Assembly: GCA_949372755.1 (NCBI GenBank)
Contig: CASIBO010000008.1
Location: 33,162 to 97,161, forward strand
Length of the DNA: 64,000 nt
Source: an uncultured Pseudomonadales bacterium
GTDB lineage: Bacteria > Pseudomonadota > Gammaproteobacteria > Pseudomonadales > Azotimanducaceae
Direction: 5' to 3'
Positions 13,247 to 61,592 of the stretch are shown here, piece by piece (within the stretch, counting starts at the first letter, position 1; the number at the start of each line of letters is the position of its first letter). The position numbers were made by a program, and so were the translations under genes. The notes beneath the pieces were generated by a model, which worked only from the letters and a program-made list of their open reading frames with translations, was not told where the DNA came from and ran no database searches.

Positions 13247-13267
13247 GGCCAGGCAGGCGCCATCGCC

Positions 13268-32671: not shown

Positions 32672-32879
32672 GGCTTTCAGAATGGTCACTGGGCTTTTGC
32701 TCGTATTGCTAGCAAGTTGTCAAACGGTTGAGCCTTGGGAGCGCGACCGACTGGCTCAGCAAGAAATGCAGTTGACGCCGAACGTTTTGGACGCGCGGCT
32801 CTCTGATCAGGTCTTTTTCAGCAAAGAAGCCGCGAGTGGGGGTGGGGCAACCGCCGGTGGCGGTTGTGGGTGCAATTAA
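32661..32879 (+). CDS. DUF4266 lipoprotein
   Basis: 72 aa with lipobox LLASC, the motif VEPWERDRLA, and a Gly/Cys C-terminus GGGCGCN. Confidence 0.8.
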   Translation: MVHKAFRMVTGLLLVLLASCQTVEPWERDRLAQQEMQLTPNVLDARLSDQVFFSKEAASGGGATAGGGCGCN

Positions 32880-34030: not shown

Positions 34031-34059
34031 CGAGTCTGCAGGTCTTTCGGTTTACCGCC

Positions 34060-43817: not shown

Positions 43818-44055
43818 TGGTTTCCCAATTTGACCACATCGAAAGCGTAGAGGGTAGATCCAAGGCTGATGCTGACTTCAGGTTGGGAGGGGCTAACGAT
43901 GATGAGCTACTGAACTCGATTTGATTGATTCAGCGTGAAGCTTTAACCTCTTATAACGATTTGAGATTAATAAGCTCTAAGGTTCAACGCCGCGCTTTTC
44001 AGTGCTTTTGGTGCAGCCAACCGTAGCAGTTTATTCCTGGAGAGAAAGCCACCTA

Positions 44056-47000
44056 ATGATCCATTTTTTTATTCCAGCGCTTTTTATGGTGGCGAGTCTC
44101 TTGGCATCTGCAGATTCGCGACCGGGCAGAGCGATCATCGATTTCGAGCCAAACAATTCGATCGACGCGGCGGAATCGATTCAGCTTGGACGTGAGGTCG
44201 ACGGCAGCCTTGCGAGTATGTCTGACGTGGATGTCTACATGGTCACGATTGATAAAACCTCCAAGCTATCGCTAGCCTTTCGAAGTGAGCTTCGAGAAAG
44301 TAACGGCTGGAAGTACGAGTTGCTTAATGAAGAGGGCAGTGTCCTGGGTGCTAGTTTTTGTGATTTTACGGATTGCGAAAATGGCGAGACGCTGTCCGTC
44401 GGCGTTCAAAGTGGTACTTATTATTTGAAGGTGCTTCCAGAATCGGATTCATCAAATGAGAGCTTCCTGCCGGATGGCGCCTACTTTTTTACCCTCACGG
44501 CGGTTGATGAATTTAGTACGGTTGAGTTTGAGCCAAACAATAGTACTGAGGTCTCGCAGGCTGTTAATTTTAATAAGACTTACGAAGGTCAGCTCTCAAG
44601 TATGTCCGATGTCGACTTCTACACGTTCGCGATTGATAACACGGCAAAGCTAGAGATCGCCTTTCAAAGTGAGCTTCGAGAAAGTAACGGCTGGAAGTAC
44701 GAGTTGCTTAATGAAGAGGGCGGTGTCCTGAGTGCTAGTTTTTGTGATTTTACGGATTGCGAAAATGGCGAGACGTTGTCCGTCGGGGTTCAGAGCGGTA
44801 CGTATTATTTGAAAGTGCTGCCAGAATCGGATTCCTCAAGTGAAAGTTTCCTGCCGGATGGCGCCTACTTTTTTACCCTCACGGCGGTTGATGATTTTAG
44901 TACGGTTGAGTTTGAGCCAAACAATAGTACTGAGGTCTCGCAGGCTGTTAATTTTAATGAGACTTACGAAGGTCAACTCTCAAGTATGACCGATGTCGAC
45001 TTCTACACAGTCACTGTTGAGAAAACTAAAAAGCTTGAGATCACCTTTCAAAGTGAGCTTCGCGAAAGTAACGGCTGGAAGTACGAGTTGCTTAATGAAG
45101 AGGGCAGTGTCCTGGGTGCTAGTTTTTGTGATTTTACGGATTGCGAAAATGGCGAGACGCTGTCCGTCGGCGTTCAAAGTGGTACTTATTATTTGAAGGT
45201 GCTGCCAGAATCGGATTCATCAAATGAGAGCTTCCTGCCGGATGGCGCCTACTTTTTTACCCTCACGGCGGGTGATGATTTTAGCACGGTTGAGTTTGAG
45301 CCAAACAATAGTACTGAGGCCTCGCAGGCTGTTAATTTTAATAAGACTTACGAAGGTCAGCTCTCAAGCATGTCCGATGTCGACTTCTACACGTTCGCGA
45401 TTGATAACACGGCAAAGCTAGAGATCGCCTTTCAAAGTGAGCTTCGAGAAAGTAACGGCTGGAAGTACGAGTTGCTCACTGAGGAGGGCAGTGTTCTGGG
45501 CGCTAGTTTTTGTGATTTTACGGATTGCGAAAATGGCGAGACGCTGTCTGTCGGCGTTCAGAGTGGGACGTATTTTCTGAAAGTGCTTCCAGAATCGGAT
45601 TCATCAAGTGAAAGTTTCCTGCCAGATGGCGCCTACTATTTTCTTATTGAATTCGGAGACAAGGATGAAGACGGCATATTTGATGAAGATGATAATTGCC
45701 TAAAAACTGCCAATCCGGATCAGCTCGATACCGACACAGATGGTTTTGGGGACGCCTGTGATGACGATGATGACGATGATGGTACAGCCGATACGAATGA
45801 TGCGTTCCCCCTAAACGCGGATGAAACCGTGGACTCAGATGGTGACGGCATTGGCAATAACGCTGATGCTGATGACGATAACGACGGCGTTGAAGACGGT
45901 AATGACGCATTCCCCTTTGATTCGGCGGAAAACTCAGACGCAGACCTTGATGGCGTAGGCGATAACAGTGACGCGTTCCCGCAGGATGCGAATGAGTCTT
46001 TAGATTCTGATCAGGACGAGGTTGGCGACAATGCTGATAATTGCCCAGAGCTTGGCAACACAGATCAAATCGATACCGATGGCGATGCTGCAGGCGATGC
46101 CTGTGATGCAGATGATGACAATGACGGGGTTTCGGACGAGTTAGATTTTTACCCCCTCGATTCAAGTCGAACGAAATATGGCGGGCAGCGGGCGCTGATC
46201 ATTGCTGGCGGTGGCCCGTACGAAGGTAATTTTCTATGGACGGCAACGCAAAACATGGCCAACGTCGCTTACGACGCGCTGCGGACCCAGGGCTTGAGCG
46301 ATGACAATATTGAGTATCTATCCGAGGAAGTTCGGGCGAGGGTAGATGGCTTGCCAACAGTAGCGAATATTAAAAAATCGATCGAAAGTTTGGCGGACGC
46401 CGATGAAGAAAAGATTACAGATGTGCTGATCTATATGGTCGATCATGGCGATGACGGAGTCTTTAAGATCGACGAATCGACCTTTTTAGGGGCGAGTGAT
46501 CTCAAGGTTTGGTTGGATGATCTGCATGCTAAACACGATATACGATCGACCCTCATTTATGATGCCTGCCAATCTGGATCCTTTATTCCTCTGCTGGGTT
46601 CACAAGACGATACCAACCGGTTAGTCATTACTAGCAGCGCAGCGCTAGAAAATGCATGGTTTGCCAGTGATGGCTATTTATCTTTTTCTTACTACTTCTG
46701 GACTATTTTCAGGAGCGGCGGTGACTTCTCCGAGGCCAGTATCGCCGCGAAAAATGCAATGGGTTTCCAGTTCAGGCAGACCGCTAAGTTTGATGCTAAC
46801 GGGAATGGTGTTAGCGATGAAAAAACAGATAAATTACTGATTAAGGACTTTGCGTTTGGGCTGGGCGCCGTGCAAGCAAGTGAGTTCCCTGTTGTGGGTG
46901 CAATTGAAGTTCAACGCGAACTTAATGGCGAGCTGTCAGTGCCAATCACCGTGGCGTCAGTCGGCGGAGGAACTGCCGTTGAAAAGGTCCTGGTGATACT

Positions 47001-50000
47001 CACGACACCAGACAAACCCATTATAGCGCCGGATGAGCCCTTGGTTAATCTGATCGATACCGAGCTGACACAAAATGAAGACGGAAGCTGGGGTGGGGTA
47101 GTAGCCGGGTTCGAGGCGAAAGGCAGCTATGAATTAAGCGTGATCGCCGAGAGTAAGAGTGGACTGACCTCTTTCCCAACAGAAGAAAACACCAATTCTG
47201 TGACGGTGCAGCAAAATATTGGTAGAGATCCAATTGTGCAGTCAGACACGGATAGAGATGGTGTTGCCGATGCGACCGATCCTGATGACGATAATGATAA
47301 TGTGCTGGACGCTGATGATGCTTTCCCAACCGATGCGGCGGAGTCTAAGGATACGGACGGCGACGGTGTTGGAGATAATGCCGACCTGGATGATGATAAC
47401 GATGCGCTGAGCGATGCGGACGAATTGTTGCTAGGGACAGATTCACTGAATGCGGATTCTGACTCGGACGGATTCAGTGATGGTCTGGATGCGCTCCCGT
47501 TAGATGCAACAGAAAGTATTGACACAGATTCCGATGGTGTCGGGAACAACGCTGATCAAGATGATGATGGCGATGGACTTGACGACATTTCTGAAATCCA
47601 ATCAGGCCTAAATCCGCTGTTAACAGACTCAGACAACGATGGTGTCGATGATGGTATTGATGCGTTTCCCTTAGATGGCAGTGAGACTGTCGATTCAGAC
47701 CTGGATGGAATTGGTGATACCCAAGATGCGTTTCCAACAAACCCAGATGAAACGTTAGACCAGGACGGGGATGGTATTGGTGACAACGCGGATGTGTTCG
47801 ATGATGATCCCTTTGAAGCCTATGACACGGATAGTGATGGTCTTGGCAATAACGCAGATCCAGATGACGACAATGATGGATTCTCGGACGATGAAGAGAT
47901 AGCCGCTGGCACCGATCCACTCGGTGCGTCATCCTGCCCAGGCTGTTTTTCTTTCGACGTTGACAACGACGGTGAGGCCAAAGCGTTAACCGATGGCCTG
48001 CTGGTGATCCGACACCTCTTCGGCTTTAGCGATGAGGCGTTAACCGCTGGTGCCGTCGGTAGCAATGCGAGTCGTACAACGCCTGCAGATATTGCAGCGT
48101 ATCTTACAAACGCGGCGACTGAGCTCGATGTCGATGGCGATGATGAGGCGAAAGCCTTAACCGATGGTTTATTACTCATTCGCCAGCTGTTCGGTTTTAC
48201 AGGTAATGCCTTAACGGCAGGCGCCGTCGGTGAGACCGCAGAGCGCGCCACCGCGAGTGCAATTCAGGCGTACATTACGCAACGCTTGCCTGACTCAAAT
48301 GGTTCGGCCAGTGGCTCGGATGACGGCGTGGGCGCTGACACCGGCGATGCTGGCGGCTCAGATACGGCTGGGTCTGACACTGGTGAAGATACGGGCGGGA
48401 CTACCTCTGGCGGCAGTACCGATGGGGGCACCAGCGACGGCGATACTGATTCGGGCGGCGACACCGGCGGCACTGATGGTGGTTCAGCCGGCACAAAAAC
48501 GATTGAGATAGACGTGGTTTATGACCGAGTGCCTTATCGCGCGCCGGAGTGCACGGCCTCAGGTTGCAGCTATCGGGGGCTGGATTACGCCAACATCGTA
48601 CAAAAGCCTGTGCGGTTTGCTAAAGCTCAGGTTTTGGATGCTGATTCGAAGGCGATCGTCACCGACAATCTTCGAACGGACGCCGCAGGACGATTGTCAT
48701 TCTCGGTTGGAGATGATGACGCTTTTATCGTGCGGGTTTATGCTGAGAGCCCAGGGAATGGCTCCGCCAGCTGGGGACTACGGATCGTTGACAACAATGG
48801 TGCTGATCAGGAAGGCAGCTACCCGGTTTATGTTTTGGAATCCCAAGCCGTGGGCGCGAATGCCGTTGACGAGCCGTTAACGCTACGGGCAGCGTCAGGA
48901 TGGGGGCTCACAAAATATACCCAAACGCGATCGGCCGCGCCGTTTGCGATCCTGGATTCAATGGTTTCGGCGACCCTCTACGCGTTAAGCGGCCGCAGTA
49001 CACTGATTTTTGCACCGGTTGATGTCTATTGGAGCATTGCGAATTCCACAGATACGGTTGGAACCTCGTATTATTCTGGTGCTTATATCATGATCCTTGG
49101 CGATGCCGAGGTAGATACCGATGAATATGATGAATCGGTGATCGTTCATGAGTGGGGCCATTATTTTCAATCAATTTTATCGAAAGACGACAGCCTTGGT
49201 GGCAGCCACGGCGGTGGTGATCTGCTGGATATGCGGGTTGCCTTTAGCGAGGGTTGGGCCAACGCTTATTCGGGTCTTGCGACGGCGCGGGATGCCTATA
49301 TCGATACCTCTGGCAGTCAACAAGCGGGTGGGTTCGGCATCGCACTTGAAATTGAACTAACTGAAAGAGAGGGTGCAGTTAAAGGCTGGTATTCCGAAGA
49401 TAGCGCCCAGTATTTGGTCTATGACTTATTTGATGATGGGGCGTCCGATGACGATAATGTCGCGCTGCCAGTCTCTGTGATGATGTCGTCGCTTATCGAT
49501 TTTATGCCCCAGCAGGCTGCGGCAACATCAATATTCAGCTTCAGTGCTGGGGTAATCGATGCGCAACCGAACCAATCCAGTTTGATCATGGCCTTGTTGG
49601 ATCGCGAAAATATTGGCCGAGGCAGGGTGCAAATTGATTCCCTTGGCTCAGGGGAAACCAATTCGGCAGGCGAATACGCTGCGGTTGAGAATATTGAGGC
49701 GATGACATTGCCGGTTTATACCGTGCTTGATAGCAGTCTGATCTCAGCAGACATGTGCCAAGATGTCTTGCCGGCGTCTGCGCCACGAGTATTCGGTATC
49801 GATAATAAACTGGGGGCTTATCGCTTTGCTCAGTTTGAAATATCTCAGGCAGGCAACTATACCGTCCGACTCACTACGACAGCGAAACCCTTGGGCGCTG
49901 CTAGCGATCCTGATTTTGGCGTTTACAATGCACAGGGCTTGATCGGCCCTCAGCTTAACGAGCTAACGGGAGCCGTGGATCTAGAGTCCCACATCTTGCA

Positions 50001-50106
50001 GTTGGCGAAAGGTCAATATTGGGCTTGGGCACACGATTACAACAATTATCAGCGAGGCAGTAATTCCGGTCGGTATTGCCAGCGTTTGGAGGTCGTGCCG
50101 CAATGA
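44056..50106 (+). CDS. giant secreted multidomain protein: 4x PPC-like repeats, TSP3 repeats, clan-CD C13-like peptidase, TSP3 repeats, dockerin-like pair, Gly/Ser/Thr/Asp linker, HExxH metallopeptidase, C-terminal PPC-like domain
   Basis: Signal peptide MIHFFIPALFMVASLLASA. FEPNNS...SDVD.Y repeats. Clan-CD dyad VDHGDDG (His codon 46444-46446) and YDACQSGSF (Cys codon 46567-46569). HEWGH at 49147-49161 with a downstream EGWANAY. Confidence 0.85.
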   Translation: MIHFFIPALFMVASLLASADSRPGRAIIDFEPNNSIDAAESIQLGREVDGSLASMSDVDVYMVTIDKTSKLSLAFRSELRESNGWKYELLNEEGSVLGASFCDFTDCENGETLSVGVQSGTYYLKVLPESDSSNESFLPDGAYFFTLTAVDEFSTVEFEPNNSTEVSQAVNFNKTYEGQLSSMSDVDFYTFAIDNTAKLEIAFQSELRESNGWKYELLNEEGGVLSASFCDFTDCENGETLSVGVQSGTYYLKVLPESDSSSESFLPDGAYFFTLTAVDDFSTVEFEPNNSTEVSQAVNFNETYEGQLSSMTDVDFYTVTVEKTKKLEITFQSELRESNGWKYELLNEEGSVLGASFCDFTDCENGETLSVGVQSGTYYLKVLPESDSSNESFLPDGAYFFTLTAGDDFSTVEFEPNNSTEASQAVNFNKTYEGQLSSMSDVDFYTFAIDNTAKLEIAFQSELRESNGWKYELLTEEGSVLGASFCDFTDCENGETLSVGVQSGTYFLKVLPESDSSSESFLPDGAYYFLIEFGDKDEDGIFDEDDNCLKTANPDQLDTDTDGFGDACDDDDDDDGTADTNDAFPLNADETVDSDGDGIGNNADADDDNDGVEDGNDAFPFDSAENSDADLDGVGDNSDAFPQDANESLDSDQDEVGDNADNCPELGNTDQIDTDGDAAGDACDADDDNDGVSDELDFYPLDSSRTKYGGQRALIIAGGGPYEGNFLWTATQNMANVAYDALRTQGLSDDNIEYLSEEVRARVDGLPTVANIKKSIESLADADEEKITDVLIYMVDHGDDGVFKIDESTFLGASDLKVWLDDLHAKHDIRSTLIYDACQSGSFIPLLGSQDDTNRLVITSSAALENAWFASDGYLSFSYYFWTIFRSGGDFSEASIAAKNAMGFQFRQTAKFDANGNGVSDEKTDKLLIKDFAFGLGAVQASEFPVVGAIEVQRELNGELSVPITVASVGGGTAVEKVLVILTTPDKPIIAPDEPLVNLIDTELTQNEDGSWGGVVAGFEAKGSYELSVIAESKSGLTSFPTEENTNSVTVQQNIGRDPIVQSDTDRDGVADATDPDDDNDNVLDADDAFPTDAAESKDTDGDGVGDNADLDDDNDALSDADELLLGTDSLNADSDSDGFSDGLDALPLDATESIDTDSDGVGNNADQDDDGDGLDDISEIQSGLNPLLTDSDNDGVDDGIDAFPLDGSETVDSDLDGIGDTQDAFPTNPDETLDQDGDGIGDNADVFDDDPFEAYDTDSDGLGNNADPDDDNDGFSDDEEIAAGTDPLGASSCPGCFSFDVDNDGEAKALTDGLLVIRHLFGFSDEALTAGAVGSNASRTTPADIAAYLTNAATELDVDGDDEAKALTDGLLLIRQLFGFTGNALTAGAVGETAERATASAIQAYITQRLPDSNGSASGSDDGVGADTGDAGGSDTAGSDTGEDTGGTTSGGSTDGGTSDGDTDSGGDTGGTDGGSAGTKTIEIDVVYDRVPYRAPECTASGCSYRGLDYANIVQKPVRFAKAQVLDADSKAIVTDNLRTDAAGRLSFSVGDDDAFIVRVYAESPGNGSASWGLRIVDNNGADQEGSYPVYVLESQAVGANAVDEPLTLRAASGWGLTKYTQTRSAAPFAILDSMVSATLYALSGRSTLIFAPVDVYWSIANSTDTVGTSYYSGAYIMILGDAEVDTDEYDESVIVHEWGHYFQSILSKDDSLGGSHGGGDLLDMRVAFSEGWANAYSGLATARDAYIDTSGSQQAGGFGIALEIELTEREGAVKGWYSEDSAQYLVYDLFDDGASDDDNVALPVSVMMSSLIDFMPQQAAATSIFSFSAGVIDAQPNQSSLIMALLDRENIGRGRVQIDSLGSGETNSAGEYAAVENIEAMTLPVYTVLDSSLISADMCQDVLPASAPRVFGIDNKLGAYRFAQFEISQAGNYTVRLTTTAKPLGAASDPDFGVYNAQGLIGPQLNELTGAVDLESHILQLAKGQYWAWAHDYNNYQRGSNSGRYCQRLEVVPQ
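44143..45655 (+). repeat. four tandem 384-bp (128-aa) near-identical coding repeats
   Basis: The FEPNN start recurs at 44143, 44527, 44911 and 45295. Off-frame ORFs 44456-44653 and 45224-45421 are almost identical, which indicates a 768-bp higher-order periodicity. Confidence 0.9.
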
Positions 50107-50771
50107 AAAACCTATTGATGATGCTCTCGGTTCTGGCATTGCTCGGTTGCAAGGCTCTTGATTCAACGGTGAGTGCGAACCCTGAGGGCCCAGTTGGGGC
50201 GGAGGTCATTCCCGGAACCGACACTACAACCTCTAAGGCGACTAGCCCGTTGACCAACCCGCTGCCGGTCAGCGATGGTGAGGTTAGCAGGCGTGCTAAC
50301 GGCAATGGTCCGTTGTGGACGATCCGCTCTGAGCAAATTGCGGCGCGATCGCAAGGTCACAGCGTAAAAACCCAATCACGAACCGCCAAGCCGCAAGGCC
50401 CCTTTACGGTGCGGTATGTCTTAGAGAGCTGGACCCCTGATGACCACCGTTTGGTGGTAGAAGTGCAAAGTAATCAAGTCATTAGTGATTGGTGGCTTGA
50501 TTTGCCGCAAATATCTGAAAAGCTCGAAACAGCTCAGTTTGCTAAGAAACATAATGCGACAGAGCCGGGCGCGGCGGAGTCGAGGACTTTTAGGTTGGGT
50601 ACACTGCCCCGGGCCAACCGATTGTTGTTGACCGTCCGAGCATTGGTTTCGGGTGTAACGACCTCAAAAACGGTTGTGATACCCCTAAGGTCGCGCTTAA
50701 ACCAAGGCGTTCGAACCTGTGATGAGGCTAGGACTGATTGCGTCGTGGCGTTGCCGGGAACGCTTCGATGA
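50103..50771 (+). CDS. lipoprotein of unknown function
   Basis: MKNLLMMLSVLALLGC lipobox. The ATG overlaps the stop of the giant gene (ATGA). Confidence 0.6.
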   Translation: MKNLLMMLSVLALLGCKALDSTVSANPEGPVGAEVIPGTDTTTSKATSPLTNPLPVSDGEVSRRANGNGPLWTIRSEQIAARSQGHSVKTQSRTAKPQGPFTVRYVLESWTPDDHRLVVEVQSNQVISDWWLDLPQISEKLETAQFAKKHNATEPGAAESRTFRLGTLPRANRLLLTVRALVSGVTTSKTVVIPLRSRLNQGVRTCDEARTDCVVALPGTLR

Positions 50772-50877: not shown

Positions 50878-50952
50878 CGGAAAAGGATTTGTGTCCATTT
50901 ACGACCGATTGATAGGTATGTTTAGCCAATATAATTGAAGCTTAGAGGAACT

Positions 50953-53900
50953 GAGATGAAGAACCTGAAACATTCATTGTTGCTTTTAATGAAAGCGGCA
51001 TTAGCGAGCGTGGTGTTAATGGCCTCTGCTGCGGTTGCAGACAACCAGATTATTACGGTGTCCCCTGCAGAACCAGCGTTCGGAGAGAGTGATGAGTCGG
51101 TTACTTTTTCGGTGGTCTATGCAACCGACCCGGAAAATACGGGGGTTCCTGGCTTCGGGCTAAAGATGTACTTTAATAGTGCCGTTTTAGAAGGCAAGGC
51201 ACTCAATGTGAATCCTGATATCGGTGGTCAGCAGACGGGTCCTTCTGTTCAAGCCGATAGTGCGGACGGCGATAATGATGCAAATACCGATAAAGTCGTT
51301 GTTGTAGCCTGGATCGAAAATACCAAGCAAGAAGGTTTTGGTGATACGGTGAGTGTTCCTTGGCCGGAAGTTGAAGATTTTACCGGTGGTGTATCGATAA
51401 TCGATGTCACCTTTGGTCGAGCCGACACAACTTTTACAGGAAAGAGTCAGGTTAATTTTATACTCAGTACAGCGGCAGGGTTTGACGCCAAGGCTGATTC
51501 GTTTGATGTTATTTTCAAAGACGATGAAACTGCGCCCGTAGTCACACTGGGCGAGTCTAGCGTCACAATTGAAGCCGTTGGGCCGCTAACCTCGGAAGAT
51601 AACGCTACAGCCCTTGCCGATTTTATTAAAACCATAACGGTTGAAGATAACAAGGATACTCTGACCACTGAGAATCTAGACGCATTTGTCACCCAAGATG
51701 GCGCGTTGGTTGCAGCCCCCGAAGGCTTTGCACCAGGCACTTACGAAATCACATTTATTGCATCGGATAGTTCCGGCAATAAGTCAGAAGGTGTCGTGGT
51801 GACCCTGACGGTTGCTGATACGACCCAGCCGGTCCTAAGCGGTGTATCCAATGTCGCATTATCCGCCGCAGATAAGAATGGTGCTCCATCTGCTGGCGTA
51901 CTTGCCGCCGTCGCGCTTGATAGCGTTGATGGTGAAGTTGTGGTCGCTTATTCCGTTGGTGGGGCTGATGTGGGAGATAATTTCCCACTAGGCGAGACAA
52001 CCGTTACGGTAAAAGCAGCCGACTCAGCTGGCAACATGGCGGAAGGCACCTTAGTCGTTACCGTTAGTGATACCACCAGTCCAGTCATTGTTTCTGCTGC
52101 CGGGGTAGCCTTGGAAGCCGATGGCGAGCTGGGGTATGGTGGTAGTACAGCAAGTATTATTGCCGCAATCGGTGTGTCGGATAATGTTGATGATGCGCCG
52201 GCGGTCACGCTAGGCGCGTCTGTGCCGGAAGTCTTGCCGTTTGGGGTTACCCAAGTTGCTGTAGTGGTGACGGATGCCGCGGGTAACGCAACAGAGGGTA
52301 CTGTGCCCGTTACCGTTGCCGATACTACGAAACCAGAATTCTCGGGCGCTAACTTACTGGTGCTAACCGTTGATGCGGCTGATGAAGTGGTTGCTAGTGA
52401 TGATGCCCGGGTCACGACCTGGTTGGCCGGCGTCACCGCAACGGATATTGTCGATGGCGCAACGGATGTTACCAACAGCGCGTTACCCAGTACTTTTGCA
52501 GTGGGTGAAGCGGTTATTACCTTTACATCCTCCGATTCGCGAGGTAATGAAGCATCAGCCGAGGCCACCATACTCGTGACGGTCGGGCCAGCGGTCACGG
52601 TTGCGGACGCTATAACAGTAGTGTCGCTAGATGGCGCGGCTTTGCCAGCGTCTCAAACGCAAATTGCGGCGTTTATTGCTGCCGCTAGTGCAACGGATTT
52701 CTCGGGCGTGGTCTTGGATGTGACGAACGATGCTCCAGATACTTTCGCTATTGGCGACACCTTAGTGACCTTTAGCGCGGTTGATGCCGATGATCGACAA
52801 GGCCAGAGCAGCTCGACGGTCACGGTTGTCGCAGCATCTGCTGAAAACGACACCGATAATGATGGCATCGATGATCTGTTTGAAGTTGAAAATGGACTCG
52901 ACCCCAATGCAGACGATGCTGAGGCTGATGCCGATGGTGATGGCCGAAGCAATCTAGACGAGTACCTAGAAGGTACAGATCCTAATGTAGATGATGTGAA
53001 ACCGATTGTTACCGCACCGGCCGATGTGGCGACGGGTGCAACTGGCGCGCTCACGAAGGCTGATCTAGGCGAAGCAACAGCGAGCGATACCTTAGATGGC
53101 GATCTTACGCCCATTGCCGATAACCCTGGTCCTTATGCACCCGGTAGCTACACGGTCACATGGTCGGCGACGGATGCGGCTGGCAACGTGGGTATTGCGA
53201 CGCAATCCGTCGTGATATCGCCGCAGGCGTCGGTCACGCCAAAAGGTCGGGTAGCGGAAGGCGCAGACTTCCTGGTTGAGGTCACATTAAATGGGCCCGC
53301 GCCAGCGTATCCGGTTGAAATCCCTGTAACGCTTGGCGGCACAGCTGAGCTAGACAGTGATTACACCGTATCCGTATCGTCCATCGTGATCGAGTCGGGT
53401 CGAATCGGTATTATGACAATCTCGGTGCTGTCTGATGAAGTTGAAGAGGGTACAGAAAGCATTGAAGTGACCTTGGGTGCACCTGCTGCCAATGCAGTAT
53501 TGGGCTCAGCCTTAACAAGCCTGATTAGTATTATTGAAACGCAGGAGCCACCTGCTCTGAAGTTGTCCGTTAGTCAGGGCGATCAAAATGGTCGGAAGGT
53601 TGCAGCGGAAGGTGGGTCCGTTATGGTCACGCTCAGTATCAAGGACCCCAATGGCACGCATACAGTGGACTGGAGCGGATCAGACAACAACCTGGTCGCA
53701 ACCTCTGAAGACGGTGCGATGATGTTCGAATTTGATCCAGCCGCATTAGCAGAAGGTGGCTATGAAGTCGCAGCGATTGTCACAGATAGTGGCATTGCAG
53801 AGACAACCTTCGATATTGGCGTCTTGATTCGAGTCGCTGCAGAAGCGGTTGAAGCGGACTCGGATGGTGACGGGGTTCCAGATAGTAAGGATACGTCTGA

Positions 53901-54609
53901 AGAAACGAATGTTATCGCGGTCGACGCCGACGCCGGCACGGCCGCTGTAACGGCGGATGCGGGCGTGAAGCTTGTAATCGGTGATGCGGCTCAAGCGTCT
54001 GGCACATCCGGTATCGCGGTCTCGGAAGAGACTATCGCGGCCAGCGGAGCGGATGGTGGTGAAGCGCCAAGCAATGGTGATGACGAAGACTTCAACTACC
54101 CAGCTGGGGTCTACGACTTCCAAGTTCAAGATCTGCCGGTACCGGGTCAATCTGTTCGATTGAGCATTCCGGTCGCAGCAGGCATTCCGGCTGATGCTGT
54201 CATGCGGAAGTATACGGAAGCTGAAGGCTGGTTTGATTTCGTCATCGATGAAAACAATGGCGTTGCTTCGGCCCCTGGTGACGATGGTGCTTGCCCATCC
54301 GTCGGCTCTGAACTGTATGTTGATGGCTTAACGGAAGGCGACACCTGCCTGCAGCTCACCGTACAAGACGGTGGTCCAAACGATGCAGACGGCTCCGTGA
54401 ACGGTGAATACGATGATCCAAGCGGGATTGCTGAAGCCGCGCCAGTTAAAGTTGTTATCGTTCCTGACACCTCGAGTCGAAAGAAAGTCGGCGGGGGTTG
54501 TAGTGTCTCTGAAGGCGGCCCGGGTGATTTTGGTCTTGTGTTCTTAGCGTTGCTCGGCGCGCTCGGTTTGTTCCGAAAGCGCCTTGCTGCGAGCCTTCTG
54601 AATCGTTGA
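50953..54609 (+). CDS. large cell-surface protein: cohesin-like N-domain, HYR/Ig-like repeats, TSP3/EF-hand-like segment, Calx-beta, choice-of-anchor-like domain, C-terminal Cys-containing TM sorting signal
   Basis: Signal peptide MKNLKHSLLLLMKAALASVVLMASAAVA. Repeated DTT.PV...G...V...A.D..GN units. The Calx-beta-like segment is AEGADFLVEV...LDSDYTV...EGTESIEVTL. The C-terminus reads DGGPNDADGSVNGEYDDPSG, then GGGCSVSEGG, a hydrophobic helix, and RKR. Confidence 0.8.
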   Translation, partial: EMKNLKHSLLLLMKAALASVVLMASAAVADNQIITVSPAEPAFGESDESVTFSVVYATDPENTGVPGFGLKMYFNSAVLEGKALNVNPDIGGQQTGPSVQADSADGDNDANTDKVVVVAWIENTKQEGFGDTVSVPWPEVEDFTGGVSIIDVTFGRADTTFTGKSQVNFILSTAAGFDAKADSFDVIFKDDETAPVVTLGESSVTIEAVGPLTSEDNATALADFIKTITVEDNKDTLTTENLDAFVTQDGALVAAPEGFAPGTYEITFIASDSSGNKSEGVVVTLTVADTTQPVLSGVSNVALSAADKNGAPSAGVLAAVALDSVDGEVVVAYSVGGADVGDNFPLGETTVTVKAADSAGNMAEGTLVVTVSDTTSPVIVSAAGVALEADGELGYGGSTASIIAAIGVSDNVDDAPAVTLGASVPEVLPFGVTQVAVVVTDAAGNATEGTVPVTVADTTKPEFSGANLLVLTVDAADEVVASDDARVTTWLAGVTATDIVDGATDVTNSALPSTFAVGEAVITFTSSDSRGNEASAEATILVTVGPAVTVADAITVVSLDGAALPASQTQIAAFIAAASATDFSGVVLDVTNDAPDTFAIGDTLVTFSAVDADDRQGQSSSTVTVVAASAENDTDNDGIDDLFEVENGLDPNADDAEADADGDGRSNLDEYLEGTDPNVDDVKPIVTAPADVATGATGALTKADLGEATASDTLDGDLTPIADNPGPYAPGSYTVTWSATDAAGNVGIATQSVVISPQASVTPKGRVAEGADFLVEVTLNGPAPAYPVEIPVTLGGTAELDSDYTVSVSSIVIESGRIGIMTISVLSDEVEEGTESIEVTLGAPAANAVLGSALTSLISIIETQEPPALKLSVSQGDQNGRKVAAEGGSVMVTLSIKDPNGTHTVDWSGSDNNLVATSEDGAMMFEFDPAALAEGGYEVAAIVTDSGIAETTFDIGVLIRVAAEAVEADSDGDGVPDSKDTSEETNVIAVDADAGTAAVTADAGVKLVIGDAAQASGTSGIAVSEETIAASGADGGEAPSNGDDEDFNYPAGVYDFQVQDLPVPGQSVRLSIPVAAGIPADAVMRKYTEAEGWFDFVIDENNGVASAPGDDGACPSVGSELYVDGLTEGDTCLQLTVQDGGPNDADGSVNGEYDDPSGIAEAAPVKVVIVPDTSSRKKVGGGCSVSEGGPGDFGLVFLALLGALGLFRKRLAASLLNR

Positions 54610-54613
54610 TTTG

Positions 54614-55063
54614 ATGACGCGTTCGCGTAATTTACACGAGTTGATTTGGGGCGCCTTGATAGGCGCCCTTTTTCTTTGGGGTGGCGCTTCCTGGTATTGG
54701 GCTCTGACGCCTAGCTTTAGTTGGGTCATGTTGCAGTGGCCAATGTTTTTTGCAGTGTGTGTGGCCAGCCCTGTTCTAGAGGAATATGTGTTTAGGGGGC
54801 TTCTTTATGAAGCGGTTGATGCACGCTGGCCTCGGGTCTGGCCGGCGGGTGCACGCTTATCGATCAGCTTCGCAAATGCCATGACGACCTGGCTGTTTGT
54901 GATAGCGCACATGATCGCGCGGGATCCAATCGCGGGCGCTTTAGTGCTTCTACCCTCGATCTATTTAGGGTTGTTACGGGCGCGTTATGGTGGAATAGGC
55001 GTCTGCATGCTCGTCCATGCGGCCTGGAACATTGGGTGGTTCAGTTTGTTTCCGCCGGCGTAG
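54614..55063 (+). CDS. CPBP-family (CAAX-like) glutamic-type intramembrane protease, small form
   Basis: All three CPBP motifs are present: EEYVFRG, FVIAHM and HAAWN. There are four predicted TM helices. The gene starts 5 nt after the stop of the surface-protein gene. Confidence 0.8.
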   Translation: MTRSRNLHELIWGALIGALFLWGGASWYWALTPSFSWVMLQWPMFFAVCVASPVLEEYVFRGLLYEAVDARWPRVWPAGARLSISFANAMTTWLFVIAHMIARDPIAGALVLLPSIYLGLLRARYGGIGVCMLVHAAWNIGWFSLFPPA

Positions 55064-57391: not shown

Positions 57392-58972
57392 ATGAAACGC
57401 ATACAAACGATATTAACCACCTGTCTTCTGGCGCTGTCTTTAATCACCAGCAGTCAGGTTGCAGCTGATAATCAAGATCTTGCTAGTGGTATTGTTCTAA
57501 AAGCAGTGACGGTGACCGATGCCACAGTCTTTAGCGAGACCGACCTAAACACTGCAATGGCACCTGCGATCGGTAAAACCGTCTATATTGAAGACATCCT
57601 AGGGATGGTCGACGCCGTTACCGCGCTTTACGTCGAGGCCGGCTACATCACCTCTGGCGCTATTCTGCCTAATCAAGATGTTGCTGATGGCCGTATTACG
57701 ATTGCGGTCGTTGAAGGGCAGCTAAATGGCGTGATCATCAATAGCGCAGGGCGTTTAAAAACGGCTTTCATTGAGTCTAAGATTAAGGCCACCGCCAGCG
57801 GCCCGCTCAATCTTGCGGATTTGCAGAGGGCGATCTCTCGACTTGAGGCGGAACCAACAATTTCCCATGTGCGGGGCGATTTAAAGCCGGGCGACACGCG
57901 GGGCACGTCGATTTTGGATCTTGAAGTCGTCGAAGCCGATGCGTTTAAAATTTTGGTTGGCGCCGACAATTACAAAAGCCCCAGTGTGGGTGAGGGCCAA
58001 GCCGTTGTCTCGCTTGCACATTTAAACCTGCTGGGCTTCAACGATCAGCTGAATGTTAGTGCTCAGCGGAGTGATGGCGTGGATGCCATATCGGTTCGCT
58101 ACGATGTACCCATTTCGATCTTACGATCTCGCCTGGCGGTCTATCATAGCCAAGGTGACACCTTGGTGGTTGAAGAGCCTTTTGATGAAATTTTTCTCGA
58201 AAGCGAGACCGACACGTCCGGGATTCAACTTTCCTCAACTTGGCGAGAAGACAATGGGCGGTCTTGGCGAACGAATCTGTCTTGGGAAACCAAGGAGAGC
58301 CTCACGACGTTGCTCGGTTTGCCCTTTGACTTTTCGCCCGGGTCTCGCCTGGGTGTGACCGAAGCCAGTGTGCTCGGCTTCAATGTTGAATATAGCCAGC
58401 GCGGCGATGGTATGGGATTCATGCTTCGTGCTGGCTTGCGTTCAGGCAGCGATGACAAGGGCCAGGGCAATGCAGCCGATGAGGGTGATTTCAGTCTCTA
58501 TCAGGTGCAAACCCAGTGGATTAAGCGTTTAAACCAAGATCCGCTGCAACCCGCGTGGCTGCTCAACTTTAATCTCAATTATCAGGAAACGAGCGACACG
58601 TTACCGGCATTTGAACGCATGGGCTTGGGCGGTCATGGCACGGTGCGGGGTTTTCGGGAAAATCGTTGGCTAAAAGACTCGGGGCTGACCGCATCGCTGA
58701 TGCTCAGTGCGCCGCTGCTGGAAGCGGGTAGTCAAAACGGTATCGCCGTGCGTGCGATGCTGTTTTACGACTACGGTCGAGGGGAGAACTCGGTGGCAGC
58801 GCTTAATGTTGATACCGAGGTTTCGCTTAGAAGCGCAGGCTTTGGGTTAACCGCCGACTATCAAAAATTGAAGTTTCGAATTGAACGCGCGCTGCGCCTG
58901 AACAAGAAAGACAAACTCGGCAATGCCTTACAAGACAGCGGTATCCATGTGGGAGTGACGTATGAACTCTAA
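57392..58972 (+). CDS. ShlB/FhaC/HecB-family two-partner secretion outer-membrane transporter (TpsB)
   Basis: Signal peptide, POTRA-like N-terminus, a beta-barrel with the GLGGHGTVRGF motif, and a terminal YEL. Confidence 0.88.
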   Translation: MKRIQTILTTCLLALSLITSSQVAADNQDLASGIVLKAVTVTDATVFSETDLNTAMAPAIGKTVYIEDILGMVDAVTALYVEAGYITSGAILPNQDVADGRITIAVVEGQLNGVIINSAGRLKTAFIESKIKATASGPLNLADLQRAISRLEAEPTISHVRGDLKPGDTRGTSILDLEVVEADAFKILVGADNYKSPSVGEGQAVVSLAHLNLLGFNDQLNVSAQRSDGVDAISVRYDVPISILRSRLAVYHSQGDTLVVEEPFDEIFLESETDTSGIQLSSTWREDNGRSWRTNLSWETKESLTTLLGLPFDFSPGSRLGVTEASVLGFNVEYSQRGDGMGFMLRAGLRSGSDDKGQGNAADEGDFSLYQVQTQWIKRLNQDPLQPAWLLNFNLNYQETSDTLPAFERMGLGGHGTVRGFRENRWLKDSGLTASLMLSAPLLEAGSQNGIAVRAMLFYDYGRGENSVAALNVDTEVSLRSAGFGLTADYQKLKFRIERALRLNKKDKLGNALQDSGIHVGVTYEL

Positions 58973-61358
58973 AATGACTTTTCGATCGATCGCCTATTCG
59001 GCAACGTGTTCTGCTTGGTTGCTTGCCAGTTCAGCGGTTATCGCCGATATCACGCTTCAGGAAACGGGCGAAACCTTAACCGGGGACATGACCATCAGCC
59101 AAGAGATGGGGCTGACCCAAGGTACAAACTTGTTGCACACCTTTTTAGCTTTTAACGTTGATCCGGGTGAATCAGCGACCTTTACGGGTAGCAATGCCAT
59201 TACTAATATTGTTGCGCGGGTAAGTGGTGATGGGGCCTCCCAAATCGATGGGTTATTACGCTCAACCATTACCGATGCGAACTTGTTCCTGATTAATCCC
59301 AACGGGGTTGCGTTTGGGGCGGGCGCCAGTATTGATATTAACGGCAGCCTGCACATCTCAACAGCGGACAGCATTGTCTTCGGGGATGATTCCAGGCTGT
59401 TGGTGTCGGACACCGGTGCCAGTGGCTTTACCGCTGCGGCGCCATCGGCCTTTGGTTTTTCAGGGGTTGGGGCTGGCATCACCTTCGACGGCACGATGAT
59501 TTCAACCCTCAACACGGATCGCGCGGCAGGCCTTTCCCTAGTGGGCGGTGATATTACGTTGTCTGAGAGCTCGATTACGTTTGCCGGTGGCACCATTGAC
59601 CTGATTGCGACCCAGGGCGAGCAGGATGTGGCCATCACGATGGCAGATCGCAGCTTTGACAACACGGCCCTAGGCGCGATTACGATTACCAATGCAGAAT
59701 TCGTGGCCGGCAAGGTTGATCTGGACGTCAGTGGCGATGCGGCAGGGCAGTTATCGCTTGCCGGCGCCAACGTGACCTTAGAGCGCGCGTTCGTGTTTTC
59801 CGATACCGAAGGCACCGGCACCGGTGGCGCCATTAATGTGCTTGCGACCGAGGCGTTAACGTTAATCGAGGGTGCGCGGATTACCACCGATACCACAGGT
59901 GGCGGCGCGGGCGGTGACCTGGTCATCCTGGCTGGCGATGTGTCGCTATCGGGCACCAACACAGCACTTGCCGCAAGTACGATTTCGGCTGGAGGCATTG
60001 CCGGCAGCATTGACGTGACAGCCAATAGTATTGACATCCTTGACGGCGCTCAGGTGAGCTCGGTAACCAGTACGGCCAGTCCGGGCGGTGATATTACCCT
60101 CAACACCGGTGATTTAACGATGGCGTCTGGTGGCCAAATCTCGGGGCAAGCAACCTCGCGCGGGCAAGGCGCTGATGTGGTCATTAACGCAACCGAATCA
60201 ATTGTCATTGATGCCACCGGTACCAACCCAGGCGAAGAGACTGGGATCCGGGTCGACAGCATTAATTTCTTACCGTTCTTCGTGGGCGGGGATGCGGGCG
60301 ATATTGTCATTACAGCCCCCAGCTTAACGCTAAAGGGCAGTGCGGTGATTGCAGCGCAAGCGTCCTTGCCCAGTTCAGGCGCACCTGGCGCCATCACGTT
60401 GAATGTCGAGCAACTGGCAATTGAAGGCGGTAGCTCTGTTTCAACCTTATCGAGCGCAAGTGCCGATGCGGGCGCAATCTCCGTTAATGCGAGCACCGTA
60501 TCCCTTATCGGCGCGGGTTCTGGGTTTAACTCAACCACGCGGCGAAGCGGTGGGGGCGGCAGCATTGTCGTTATGGCCGATAATTTCACGATGAGCGGCG
60601 GCGCAACGGCAGATACCTCGACAGAAGGCGCTGGGGCTGCCGGTAATATCAGTATTGATGTCACGGGTTCGGTCAACTTGACGGATGCGAGCTCTGAACT
60701 TGCCAGTCGGTCAAGCGGTGAAGGCAGGGGAGGTAATATCAGTGTCTCGGGTGAATCCTTAACGTTTAGTAACAACGGCGTGCTGTCGGTCACCGCAAGT
60801 GGCGCCGGAGACGCCGGTAACATCAGCCTTATGGCCCTGAACCGGCTGGAAGTATTGGATGGCGCGCAGGTTCAAACCAATGCTGAAAACTCGGGTGGGG
60901 GTAATATTGATGTTGCGGTCATCGATACCATCTATTTGCGCAACGGTACCCTGACGGCTTCCGCTGGTGGCGCTGAGGGCAGTAGCAACGGCGGTAATAT
61001 CAACATCGACCCCAGATTCCTGATTTTAGACAACGCAAGCATTGTGGCCCAGGCGGTTGCAGGCAATGGCGGTGTGATCGAATTGGTCGCAGACAACTAT
61101 ATCGCCGACATTAACAGCTTCTTGGATGCCTCTAGCGAGCTTGGGAATGATGGCGAGGTGCGCATTACAACACCTTATAACTCCATCTCTGGCGTTTTAG
61201 GCACGCTCAACGCGAACTTCGATGCGGTGGCGCAGATCGCAACCGATGCGTGCTCCGCGCGTAATTTAGAGCAGCGTAGCAGCCTGATCGTTGAGCAGAA
61301 ACGCGGCAACCTTAATGCGCCGGGTGATTTAAGGCCGATTCAGGGCGAAGAGTGCTAG
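58962..61358 (+). CDS. filamentous-hemagglutinin N-terminal (TPS) domain protein, beta-helical TpsA exoprotein
   Basis: The TPS domain reads GTNLLHTFLAFNV..GESATF....IVARVSG...SQIDG......NLFLINPNGVAFG. A Gly/Ala/Ser/Thr-rich beta-helix repeat region follows. It overlaps tpsB by 11 nt. Confidence 0.85.
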   Translation: MNSKMTFRSIAYSATCSAWLLASSAVIADITLQETGETLTGDMTISQEMGLTQGTNLLHTFLAFNVDPGESATFTGSNAITNIVARVSGDGASQIDGLLRSTITDANLFLINPNGVAFGAGASIDINGSLHISTADSIVFGDDSRLLVSDTGASGFTAAAPSAFGFSGVGAGITFDGTMISTLNTDRAAGLSLVGGDITLSESSITFAGGTIDLIATQGEQDVAITMADRSFDNTALGAITITNAEFVAGKVDLDVSGDAAGQLSLAGANVTLERAFVFSDTEGTGTGGAINVLATEALTLIEGARITTDTTGGGAGGDLVILAGDVSLSGTNTALAASTISAGGIAGSIDVTANSIDILDGAQVSSVTSTASPGGDITLNTGDLTMASGGQISGQATSRGQGADVVINATESIVIDATGTNPGEETGIRVDSINFLPFFVGGDAGDIVITAPSLTLKGSAVIAAQASLPSSGAPGAITLNVEQLAIEGGSSVSTLSSASADAGAISVNASTVSLIGAGSGFNSTTRRSGGGGSIVVMADNFTMSGGATADTSTEGAGAAGNISIDVTGSVNLTDASSELASRSSGEGRGGNISVSGESLTFSNNGVLSVTASGAGDAGNISLMALNRLEVLDGAQVQTNAENSGGGNIDVAVIDTIYLRNGTLTASAGGAEGSSNGGNINIDPRFLILDNASIVAQAVAGNGGVIELVADNYIADINSFLDASSELGNDGEVRITTPYNSISGVLGTLNANFDAVAQIATDACSARNLEQRSSLIVEQKRGNLNAPGDLRPIQGEEC

Positions 61359-61592
61359 CTGGATAGACCTTGCTCTCAAAGGGTGGTTAAAAGCTGCGAA
61401 GCCTCTTAGCAGTGAACGAAAAAAGATCTATAGGCTTCAATTGCGCGTGATCAGTGTCTTCATGGCTTAATTTAAAGCGAGCGGTGGTGGTCGCTAAGCC
61501 GCCAAGCCCTTCCGAGCACAGTTCCTAGAGTGCATTAACACCTAAGGACTTTTATTCTATGCCAGCCTACCCGATCAGATTGAGACATTGGA

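Follow-up and report, generated by a model that had tools for sequence, protein, structure and literature searches.

We analyzed a window of 64,000 nucleotides from an uncultured Pseudomonadales bacterium, in which the forward strand encodes a 1217-residue surface protein at positions 50956 to 54609. Its ATG start codon (50956) is preceded, at a distance of 6 nt, by a ribosome-binding site, AGAGGA, as read from the sequence. A Sec signal peptide is predicted in the same way at residues 1 to 28 (MKNLKHS...AAVA-DN; 50956-51039, forward strand); comparable leaders occur in orthologs P0001 and P0002, and we infer by homology that the protein is exported through it. The signal peptide is followed by a discrete, divergent cohesin-type beta-sandwich domain (residues 30 to 194; 51043-51537) and then by a stalk of about 985 residues (51538-54489), composed of HYR and Ig-like repeats, two bacterial TSP3 repeats (at about nt 52864-52998) and a choice-of-anchor U region. 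The stalk is matched by the Pfam families HYR (3.5e-17), Big_13, and Bact_surface_Ig-like and by the NCBIfam models choice_anch_U (7.6e-13) and LapB_rpt_80. The layout, with a distal N-terminal domain, a long Ig/HYR stalk, and a C-terminal anchor, is of the fibrillar-adhesin type. An initial, sequence-only reading of the window had proposed that this anchored protein starts with a cohesin-like domain at 51040-51519; all the residues that it quoted are present where it placed them, and the span was essentially right, the limits being refined here to those given above.

The C-terminal tail (54490-54609, forward strand) looks like a tripartite sorting signal of the JDVT-CTERM type, consisting of GGGCSVSEGGPGDFG, a hydrophobic helix, and RKR, and it is kept in orthologs P0003, P0005, and P0006. 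It scored 19.9 bits with the JDVT-CTERM model NF033191, below the cut-off of 27. In GGGCSVSEGGPGDFGLVFLALLGALGLFRKRL, there is a single Cys, then the helix and RKR, and Phe (Leu in P0006) comes after the Asp at +9; in contrast, a D-P pair nine residues after the Cys is nearly invariant in the JDVT-CTERM family. Only 2 nt past the stop codon begins mrtJ (54611-55063, forward strand), which encodes a CPBP/Rce1-like glutamic intramembrane protease predicted to be the sorting enzyme of the preceding protein. MrtJ scored 81.5 bits with its model, NF033192, above the cut-off of 75, and matched the Pfam Rce1-like family at 2e-15; a related locus, L001, has an Rce1-like gene in the equivalent position. 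An exact look-up of MrtJ and of the window protein encoded at 58962-61358 returned no record. With the JDVT-CTERM/MrtJ system (Haft, bioRxiv 10.1101/2023.06.07.544157), the locus has in common a tail with a single Cys in one client gene and, immediately behind this gene, a small CPBP protease, here above the MrtJ cut-off; the definition of that system does not include an N-terminal cohesin module. Myxosortase has been shown experimentally for MYXO-CTERM (PMC11980579). The JDVT-CTERM-like tail and the adjacent MrtJ make it plausible that the protein is anchored as first proposed: MrtJ would process the signal formed by the Cys motif, the transmembrane helix, and RKR, in the way proposed for proteins of the JDVT-CTERM family, leaving the protein on the cell surface.

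Two other proteins of the window have dockerin-like modules. The first, a candidate cargo, is a 2034-residue secreted protein encoded directly upstream (44002-50106, forward strand; its start is uncertain, at GTG 44002 or ATG 44056). From the N to the C terminus, it comprises four repeats of about 113 residues, a TSP3 region, a Peptidase_C13-like domain, a second TSP3 region, the dockerin-like module (47941-48291, forward strand), a linker rich in Gly, Ser, Asp, and Thr, and a domain of about 530 residues with an HEWGH sequence. Pfam recognized Peptidase_C13 (2.4e-10), TSP_3, and TSP3_bac in this protein. The C-terminal domain, which is 53% conserved in L001, had no Pfam match and no PDB sequence match, and it is a putative metalloprotease by virtue of its HEWGH motif. 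The second module (36000-36350, forward strand) forms the C terminus of a 452-residue CxxCH/TSP3 protein (35001-36359). When we looked for orthologs of the latter with a JDVT-CTERM in place of the module, a replacement that would have spoken for anchoring by proxy, only close or fragmentary homologs were retrieved.

The two modules are 61.5% identical to each other and scored 157 bits (47941-48291) and 150 bits (36000-36350) with an HMM of their family, A3. Each consists of two 57-residue F-hand repeats (DVDNDG..ALTDGLLVIRHLFGF in the multi-protease), with the motif D.D.(D/N)G...(A)LTDGLL..RYLFG occurring twice; the duplicated F-hand residues D7, D9, and D19 and D64, D66, and D76 are invariant in A3. 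Canonical dockerins have approximately 60 to 70 residues and repeats of approximately 22 residues. The present modules, of 118 residues with a 57-residue period, fall outside that size, and each of their repeats has an extra conserved segment, GFxGxxLTxGAxxxxAxRTT...YL. With Pfam Dockerin_1 (PF00404), the module at 47941-48291 obtained 13 bits (E 0.12; gathering score, 22.9, which the window modules do not reach) in an alignment spanning positions 2 to 56 of the 57-position profile, and 12 of 20 members of the dockerin-like family were matched, at best with 6e-5; PF00404 is a precomputed annotation of a further relative, P0162. The family profile found weak matches in the PDB to the dockerin 1ohz_B (E 0.026) and to calmodulin EF-hands. 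Thus, the neighboring modules that had been called dockerin-like are recognizable yet weak relatives of dockerins, of twice the usual size. The dockerin-like module is represented by at least 2526 clusters at 90% identity, most of which come from marine metagenomes.

The last ORF of the window (61593-64000, forward strand; GTG start) runs off its end. It encodes a signal peptide, a PPC domain (Pfam, 3.1e-7), 10 TSP3 repeats (TSP_3, 1.1e-63), a TSP3_bac region and a second cohesin-type domain (63711-64000), of which only the N-terminal 95 residues or so lie in the window. Pairwise BLASTP between the two window segments was not significant (E=1.7). However, a family HMM derived from 111 instances of the domain, this second copy excluded, gave its 92-residue fragment 39.8 bits (E 9e-12) and the whole open frame (61584-63998) 33.4 bits (E 8.5e-10), and no further window ORF was detected; an HMM of alignment A2, described below, gave the copy 29.5 bits. 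The second copy posited in the last ORF is therefore a genuine family member that is invisible to BLASTP. The continuation of the ORF is known from one ortholog of 1014 residues (L003:8009-11053), which has 85% identity to the 233 residues that end the window ORF (63300-63998) and in which a complete cohesin-type domain is followed by one dockerin-like repeat and then the stop codon.

An exhaustive HMMER search of 1.84 billion proteins with a three-sequence profile of the cohesin-type domain identified 420 representative proteins with E<=1e-3, 59 of them at <=1e-10 and 5 at <=1e-30, so that the module occurs in at least 420 representatives at 50% identity. Pfam Cohesin (PF00963; gathering score, 24.1 bits) gave no match at E<=10 when each window segment was scanned by itself and none within the whole 50956-54609 protein, and phmmer with the domain and searches with the A2 and P0019 profiles detected no cohesin among PDB sequences. 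As these direct searches were empty, we established homology to cohesins through intermediate sequences and through the fold. Eight of the 42 members of alignment A2 matched Pfam Cohesin, at best with 1e-6, and four family members exceeded the gathering score, with 28.1, 29.4, 49.2 (P0019), and 32.4 (P0028) bits, the first two over profile positions 5 to 126 of 139. All of them are hits of the window-derived profile, which links the window domain to Pfam Cohesin through its family. A Pfam Cohesin match thus exists for some relatives and not for the window copy itself. The A2 alignment also revealed conservation of an acidic loop (DxxxxDxDxxTD) and of a WP motif. Residues D72, D77, D79, and T82 of the loop, which canonical cohesins do not have, are nearly invariant and probably bind Ca2+. 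Some members have the domain in tandem arrays of up to seven copies, and throughout the family it is accompanied by cadherin, Calx-beta, and TSP3 domains, of adhesin type and nonenzymatic. Ten family clusters that we looked up owe their names to other domains or are called “hypothetical protein.” The family is thus large, mostly unannotated, and grades into Pfam Cohesin.

Fold prediction could have contradicted the cohesin assignment; instead, the assignment survived. An AF2 model computed from three sequences only was unusable (pLDDT 38), whereas a 42-sequence alignment yielded a confident model (pLDDT 95.3, pTM 0.88), in which the domain is a compact beta-sandwich whose nearest solved relatives are cohesins. 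In a Foldseek search of the PDB with this model, 38 of the 40 matches with E<=1e-3 were cohesin modules, with a probability of 1.00 and the best at 1.9e-6; superpositions were moderate, with TM scores of 0.5 to 0.68 and rmsd values of 4 to 7 Å. Among the matches are cohesins of type I (2vn5, 1g1k, and 1ohz) and the noncellulosomal cohesins of Archaeoglobus (2xdh) and Clostridium perfringens (2vo8 and 2jh2), with the adhesin domains 9ifr (CLIPPER) and 4igb (Sgo0707) lower in the ranking. A CLIPPER or intramolecular-isopeptide domain was considered and rejected. Such domains are defined by a conserved Lys, an Asn or Asp, and a catalytic acid that form an isopeptide bond; 9ifr ranked only 28th, and the conserved columns of A2 contain no invariant or nearly invariant Lys. 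The window domain is a divergent, unannotated cohesin module and adds a new member to the noncellulosomal cohesins.

The model shares its beta-sandwich with the type I cohesins of the Clostridium cellulolyticum CipC (1g1k and 2vn5) and Clostridium thermocellum CipA (1anu, 1aoh, and 1ohz) scaffoldins, at Foldseek E values of 1.9e-6 to 3e-4. They also have in common the core pattern G..x..(F/Y)(D/N)xxxL and, in some family proteins, a tandem arrangement; like the type I relatives, family members score above the Pfam Cohesin cut-off, unlike the window copies. In contrast, identity is only about 11 to 15%, and the acidic loop and WP motif are additions of the window family. The host belongs to a Gram-negative, marine Pseudomonadales lineage known from metagenome-assembled genomes (MAGs), unlike those of type I cohesins. 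The window and the family members that we examined have HYR, TSP3, cadherin, and Calx-beta as companion domains and not carbohydrate-active modules, and the anchor is JDVT-CTERM-like with MrtJ rather than SLH or a sortase signal as in cellulosomal systems. The cohesins of Archaeoglobus fulgidus (2xdh) and of C. perfringens glycoside hydrolases (2vo8, 2jh2, and 2w1n) have the fold outside a cellulosome and are all significant Foldseek matches. The Archaeoglobus protein combines a cohesin and a dockerin in one chain, and cohesin-dockerin pairs of C. perfringens assemble enzyme and toxin complexes. The window proteins differ from both in lineage, in anchoring, and in the presumptive partner, a 118-residue double F-hand module preceded by TSP3_bac.

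A dockerin-like module is present in the same chain in 55 of the 151 cohesin-like family representatives examined (36%), as in the Archaeoglobus protein, while a set of 78 TSP3-type loci that are unrelated, covering about 1.2 Mb, had neither module. Such fusions, in which 37 of 62 dockerin-like modules directly adjoin a cohesin-like domain, are evidence of the gene-fusion, or “Rosetta stone,” type for a coupling between the two modules. Gene order points in the same direction. In L001, the genes for a dockerin-bearing protease, a small protein, the cohesin-tipped protein, the Rce1-like protease, CHAT, TpsB, TPS, and a PPC/TSP3 protein follow one another, and the succession of dockerin-bearing protease, cohesin anchor, and MrtJ is kept between the two loci, with identities of 43 to 70% in the genes compared. 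The N-terminal catalytic domain of the L001 cargo is M12B reprolysin-like where the window protein has C13. Fusions and a conserved synteny in which the catalytic domain varies are circumstantial evidence that favors a cohesin-dockerin assembly, and none of the results contradicts one. The tip domain and the dockerin-like module are 49 and 70% identical, respectively, between the window and L001, which is not a pattern of tight coevolution. Moreover, no cohesin-like gene was found within 10 kb of the dockerin-like genes in three independent loci, so that the two kinds of gene are not neighbors everywhere.

On these grounds, we tentatively propose that the cohesin module at the N-terminal tip of the anchored protein is a receptor for the dockerin-like modules of its neighbors, a reading that we hold to be a serious contender, if one still short of probable. 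The stalk of about 1000 residues (HYR, Ig-like, and TSP3) would hold the module away from the cell, where it could capture the 118-residue double F-hand module of the 2034-residue multi-protease and, likewise, that of the 452-residue CxxCH protein encoded at 35 kb. In this way, both dockerin-bearing proteins would be held at the cell surface, and their attachment would probably depend on Ca2+. The protein of the last ORF, whose cohesin-type domain is fused to a single dockerin-like repeat, could serve as an adaptor or lengthen the chain. The display of proteases through cohesin-dockerin tethering, as first suggested for this locus, is plausible to the same tentative degree. A more ambitious extension is that the locus encodes a Gram-negative, noncellulosomal analog of the cellulosome devoted to proteolysis, with several levels of assembly. 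The MrtJ-anchored protein with its cohesin tip would be the scaffold, and the giant multi-protease (C13-like and HExxH) and the CxxCH redox protein would be cargo recruited by way of an enlarged kind of dockerin, 118 residues long. The secreted product of the last ORF, with both kinds of module, would be the adaptor. This extension appears doubtful at present.

The strongest competitor retains the cohesin fold and makes the domain a ligand-binding adhesin tip, directed at a polysaccharide, a particle surface, or another cell, while the dockerin-like modules serve separately, for instance in Ca2+-dependent attachment to another receptor. The fibrillar-adhesin architecture of the protein, the adhesin-type companions of the family, and the adhesin domains at lower Foldseek ranks are in keeping with it, as are the 64% of representatives whose own chain lacks a dockerin-like module and the three dockerin-like loci that have no cohesin-like neighbor. 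The tip is also the fastest-evolving part of the protein, as is typical of adhesin tips: its identity is 43% compared with 65 to 80% elsewhere relative to P0005, and 49% compared with 68% for the remainder relative to L001. However, the best structural matches are cohesins rather than CBMs or adhesin tips, and both the strong excess of cohesin-like and dockerin-like fusions and the conserved synteny with a dockerin-bearing protease speak against an adhesin tip, which we regard as possible and rather unlikely.

Another alternative arises from the fusions themselves. In 37 of their 62 dockerin-like modules, the module abuts the cohesin-like domain with no linker, and the ortholog of the last ORF has exactly such a didomain. 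Such adjacency may mean that the two form a unit within one molecule, as an X-module and its dockerin do, instead of a pair that binds in trans. The cohesin-like domain would then be a structural partner or scaffold of the adjacent module, comparable to the X-module in X-dockerin dyads of type II/III, or a spacer stiffened by Ca2+, with no specific trans partner for stand-alone copies. The acidic loop, suggestive of stabilization by Ca2+, and the tandem arrays are compatible with this view, although such arrays are equally a hallmark of scaffoldins. The copy at 51043-51537, in contrast, has no dockerin-like module in its chain and sits at an exposed tip, not inside the stalk, and the domain starts within 60 residues of the N terminus in 95 of 152 proteins (151 family representatives and the window protein), making a purely structural role improbable. 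Lastly, a chance or compositional resemblance between two unrelated segments with no discrete domain, for which one might invoke the BLASTP result, the missing direct Pfam match, and the poor three-sequence model, is refuted by the 420 representatives, by the score of the second copy with an HMM that excluded it, and by the confident model from the deeper alignment with its consistent cohesin matches, and deserves practically no credence.

Cellulosomes are organized by cohesin-dockerin pairing, which also serves as a workhorse in protein engineering; to our knowledge, its biological role outside the Firmicutes is almost unexplored. With a cohesin-tipped anchor, a predicted sorting protease, two dockerin-like neighbors, and a candidate adaptor, the locus is a compact case for testing this role in a marine Pseudomonadales lineage that is uncultured. 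If the modules bind each other, this would explain how such bacteria, living in seawater, retain costly extracellular proteases on their surface; it would also assign a function to thousands of unnamed TSP3-dockerin-like proteins in metagenomes and reveal a widespread, unrecognized way of keeping extracellular enzymes on marine bacterial cells. Even without binding, the domain defines an unannotated family with a cohesin fold. A possible parallel is Saccharophagus degradans 2-40, a marine gammaproteobacterium without a cellulosome: according to the paper on its genome, dockerin-like motifs occur in two of its ORFs and cohesin-like modules of distant relationship in six, and their binding was left to be tested (PMC2386152). 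Unlike the window modules, they have no described link to MrtJ, JDVT-CTERM, or proteases. Separately, a locus from a Saccharophagus MAG, L006, came up in our TSP3-based scan.

The surface protein is encoded by the open reading frame 50935-54609, whose best start is an ATG at 50956 with AGAGGA 6 nt upstream, giving a product of 1217 residues. The first 28 of these resemble a signal peptide that ends in AVA|DN. Profile searches placed a cohesin-type domain at residues 30-194 (nt 51043-51537), so the location proposed by the sequence-only reading, 51040-51519, was essentially right, and all the residues that it quoted were found in place. A word-indexed search with this tip domain retrieved two homologs only; an exhaustive HMMER search with a 3-sequence profile matched 420 representative proteins under an E-value limit of 1e-3, of which 59 reached <=1e-10 and 5 reached <=1e-30. 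Chance resemblance is refuted. Family proteins contain 1 to 7 copies, the first of which begins within 60 residues of the N terminus in 95 of 152 proteins. In a 42-member alignment (A2), columns Y26, G37, D77 and T82 are invariant, and Q2, G39, L49, D72, D79, P108, L119, F124, N138 and G146 are conserved at >=90%.

Pfam Cohesin did not match this domain or the second one in the window, even at E<=10, and no PDB cohesin was found by sequence with the domain, the family profile or a Pfam-positive family member as the query. The Pfam relationship surfaced instead through relatives: 8 of the 42 A2 members matched Pfam Cohesin, and four family members (28.1, 29.4, 49.2 and 32.4 bits) exceeded the gathering score of 24.1 bits, the first two matches covering profile positions 5-126 of 139. 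AlphaFold2 models had a pLDDT of 38 from 3 sequences and of 95.3 (pTM 0.88) from A2, the latter model being an all-beta domain of approximately 10 strands. Foldseek comparison of this model with the PDB yielded 40 matches at E<=1e-3, 38 of them cohesin modules (best E 1.9e-6, probability 1.00, TM 0.5-0.68), including cellulosomal types I, II and III and the solved non-cellulosomal cohesins of Archaeoglobus fulgidus and Clostridium perfringens. Only a CLIPPER adhesin domain (rank 28) and AvmM (rank 34) fell outside this group. The predicted fold therefore does not bear out the refuting condition of the sequence-only reading, a non-cohesin topology, and the domain is very probably a cohesin by fold and through intermediates, though not directly by sequence.

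We class the domain as an unannotated member of the non-cellulosomal cohesins. None of ten family clusters looked up was named for it; four were nameless, and existing names came from other domains ("MYXO-CTERM domain-containing protein," "choice-of-anchor D," "DUF11," "cadherin repeat") or were "hypothetical protein." MDC1102181.1 is named "HYR domain-containing protein"; P0003, which represents that cluster, shares 97% identity with the window protein in the tip. Non-cellulosomal cohesin- and dockerin-like modules have reportedly been surveyed more broadly by Peer et al. in 2009. Such modules are already known, e.g., from the marine gammaproteobacterium Saccharophagus degradans, whose genome paper described distant cohesin-like and dockerin-like modules without a binding test (PMC2386152).

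A GTG at 61593 is the start codon of the last open frame, which continues past the window end. The second cohesin-like copy claimed there holds up: the quoted residues are present, and a family HMM built from 111 domains, with this copy left out, gave 39.8 bits (E 9e-12) for its 92-residue fragment and 33.4 bits for open frame 61584-63998, while no remaining window ORF scored. Pairwise BLASTP between the two window segments was not significant (E 1.7). A genome scan identified orthologous loci in two Pseudomonadales MAGs, L002 and L003, one of them from the Fram Strait series, that match the final 233 residues of the window ORF with 85-86% identity. The L003 ortholog, of 1014 residues, has a complete cohesin-type domain followed at once by one dockerin-like repeat (SLDIDGNGKAEALTDGLLVIRYLFGF...) and a stop codon.

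Dockerin-like modules were located at 47941-48291, inside the 2034-residue multi-protease, and at 36000-36350, at the C terminus of the 452-residue CxxCH protein. They are 61.5% identical, and each comprises two 57-residue repeats of the form D-x-D-x-(D/N)-G-x3-5-(A/P)-LTDGLL-x2-R-(Y/H)-LFGF with a conserved segment behind. The window module reached 13 bits with Pfam Dockerin_1 (E 0.12, positions 2-56 of 57), below the cut-off of 22.9, but 12 of 20 family members matched this model (best 6e-5), and the family profile weakly matched calmodulin EF-hands and, at E 0.026, 1ohz_B, the Xyn dockerin of Clostridium thermocellum. The dockerin-like label given to these neighbors is therefore kept, and Pfam membership is not: judged by sequence, they are dockerin-like F-hand modules of twice the canonical size, outside Dockerin_1 by the Pfam threshold. 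At E<=1e-5, this 118-residue family numbers at least 2526 clusters at 90% identity, mostly of marine metagenome proteins that are almost never named, and a TSP3_bac repeat precedes many copies. Other loci with the module are L082 (14361-15620) and L083 (18550-20451); in L083, it is N-terminal in a GH16 enzyme and C-terminal in a 2103-residue FG-GAP/LRR/TSP3 protein.

Behind the tip, the 1217-residue protein has HYR and Ig-like repeats, two bacterial TSP3 repeats, a choice-of-anchor U domain and the tail ...VGGGCSVSEGGPGDFGLVFLALLGALGLFRKRLAASLLNR, which is kept in the orthologs P0003, P0005 and P0006. The tail scored 19.9 bits with NCBIfam JDVT-CTERM, under the cut-off of 27, and the product of the next gene (54611-55063) 81.5 bits with the model for the intramembrane protease MrtJ, over the cut-off of 75. 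In the JDVT-CTERM/MrtJ system, described in silico, a single-Cys motif is followed by a transmembrane helix and an Arg-rich end, and the helix has a DP, nearly invariant, at nine residues past the Cys; each genome has one client, with MrtJ almost always adjacent (Haft, bioRxiv 10.1101/2023.06.07.544157). The window tail differs in having Asp at +9 followed by Phe (Leu in P0006) instead of Pro, and the signal (54490-54609) reads GD(F/L)G in the window protein and all three orthologs. We read the tail and 54611-55063 as a divergent JDVT-CTERM/MrtJ pair, from which the protein is predicted to be anchored at the cell surface. The P0006 cluster has the JGI name "MYXO-CTERM domain-containing protein"; for MYXO-CTERM, a myxosortase has reportedly been demonstrated experimentally.

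A tentative mechanism, to which we give somewhat less than an even chance as a whole, can be outlined. By homology, the 1217-residue protein would be exported via the Sec pathway, its C-terminal signal would be processed in an MrtJ-dependent manner before surface attachment, and the cohesin module would be presented on a stalk of approximately 1000 residues. This module may capture two proteins through their dockerin-like modules, the giant protease of the neighboring gene and the CxxCH protein, with the cohesin- and dockerin-containing protein of the last ORF as a possible adaptor and Ca2+ probably bound by the conserved acidic loop. We know of no description of a cohesin tip on an MrtJ client beside proteases with an expanded dockerin-like module.

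Gene fusions indirectly suggest that the modules are linked functionally or physically: by HMM, 55 of 151 cohesin-like family representatives have a dockerin-like module in the same chain, and 37 of 62 such modules adjoin the C-terminal end of a cohesin-like domain without a linker, whereas neither module occurs in any of 78 unrelated TSP3-type loci (~1.2 Mb in all). The conserved gene order of the related locus L001 likewise indirectly favors joint working. The genes compared are 43-70% identical to those of the window, and L001 has the same arrangement (dockerin-bearing protease, small protein, cohesin-tipped protein, Rce1-like protease, CHAT, TpsB, TPS and PPC/TSP3 protein). The candidate cargo protease shares with L001 a core of TSP3_bac, the dockerin-like module and a C-terminal HExxH domain (53% identity). 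Variation lies in the N-terminal catalytic part, which is M12B reprolysin-like in L001 and Peptidase_C13-like with four repeats in the window. Three observations count against pairing or are neutral. A cohesin-like gene was found within 10 kb in none of three independent dockerin-like loci; the linker-less fusions could form a cis unit like the X-module-dockerin dyad; and the tip evolves faster than the rest of its protein (43% versus 65-80% elsewhere against P0005; 49% versus 68% against L001), beside 70% identity of the dockerin-like module between L001 and the window. A less likely alternative is a cohesin-fold adhesin tip whose ligand is not a dockerin. Less probable still, the cohesin-like domain might be a cis structural partner or spacer. 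A cohesin-dockerin assembly at this locus is a plausible hypothesis, which these results sharpen.

The CxxCH, TSP3 and dockerin-like protein (35001-36359) ends a gene run (31982-36359) that also encodes a TlpA-like redoxin (31982-32671), DUF3570 (32864-34030) and ApbE (34060-35004). Some JDVT-CTERM proteins have a TlpA/DUF4266/DUF3570 neighborhood (Haft, bioRxiv 10.1101/2023.06.07.544157); in contrast, the last gene of the window run has a dockerin-like module, not JDVT-CTERM, at its end. A search for orthologs of the 452-residue protein ending in JDVT-CTERM found close or fragmentary homologs only.

The C-terminal ~530 residues of the 2034-residue protein (48550-50103) contain HEWGH, are 53% identical to the C terminus of the L001 1426-residue protein and had no sequence match in Pfam or the PDB; they are possibly an undescribed metalloprotease-like domain. 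The N terminus (44002 to ~45700), where window GC is lowest (0.475), holds four nearly identical ~113-residue repeats (EFEPNNS...GAYFFTLTA) that received no name from Pfam and are similar to the PPC-like region with which the last ORF begins. Between the protease and cohesin-tipped genes, 50076-50771 (probable start ATG 50103) encodes a small protein whose leader (MKNLLMMLSVLALLGC) is lipobox-like; it had no family match and is 42% identical to its L001 counterpart in the same position. Three genes lie between MrtJ and the last ORF, in an order kept in L001 and L003: 55364-57379 encodes a TPR-containing CHAT-domain protein, 57392-58972 a TpsB/ShlB-type transporter that includes POTRA_2, and 58962-61358 a 798-residue product bearing a TPS secretion domain. 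In L001 (10001-13685), the cohesin-tipped gene is split by a frameshift or assembly error: P0002, of 229 residues, ends out of frame, and the remainder lies in 11685-13685.
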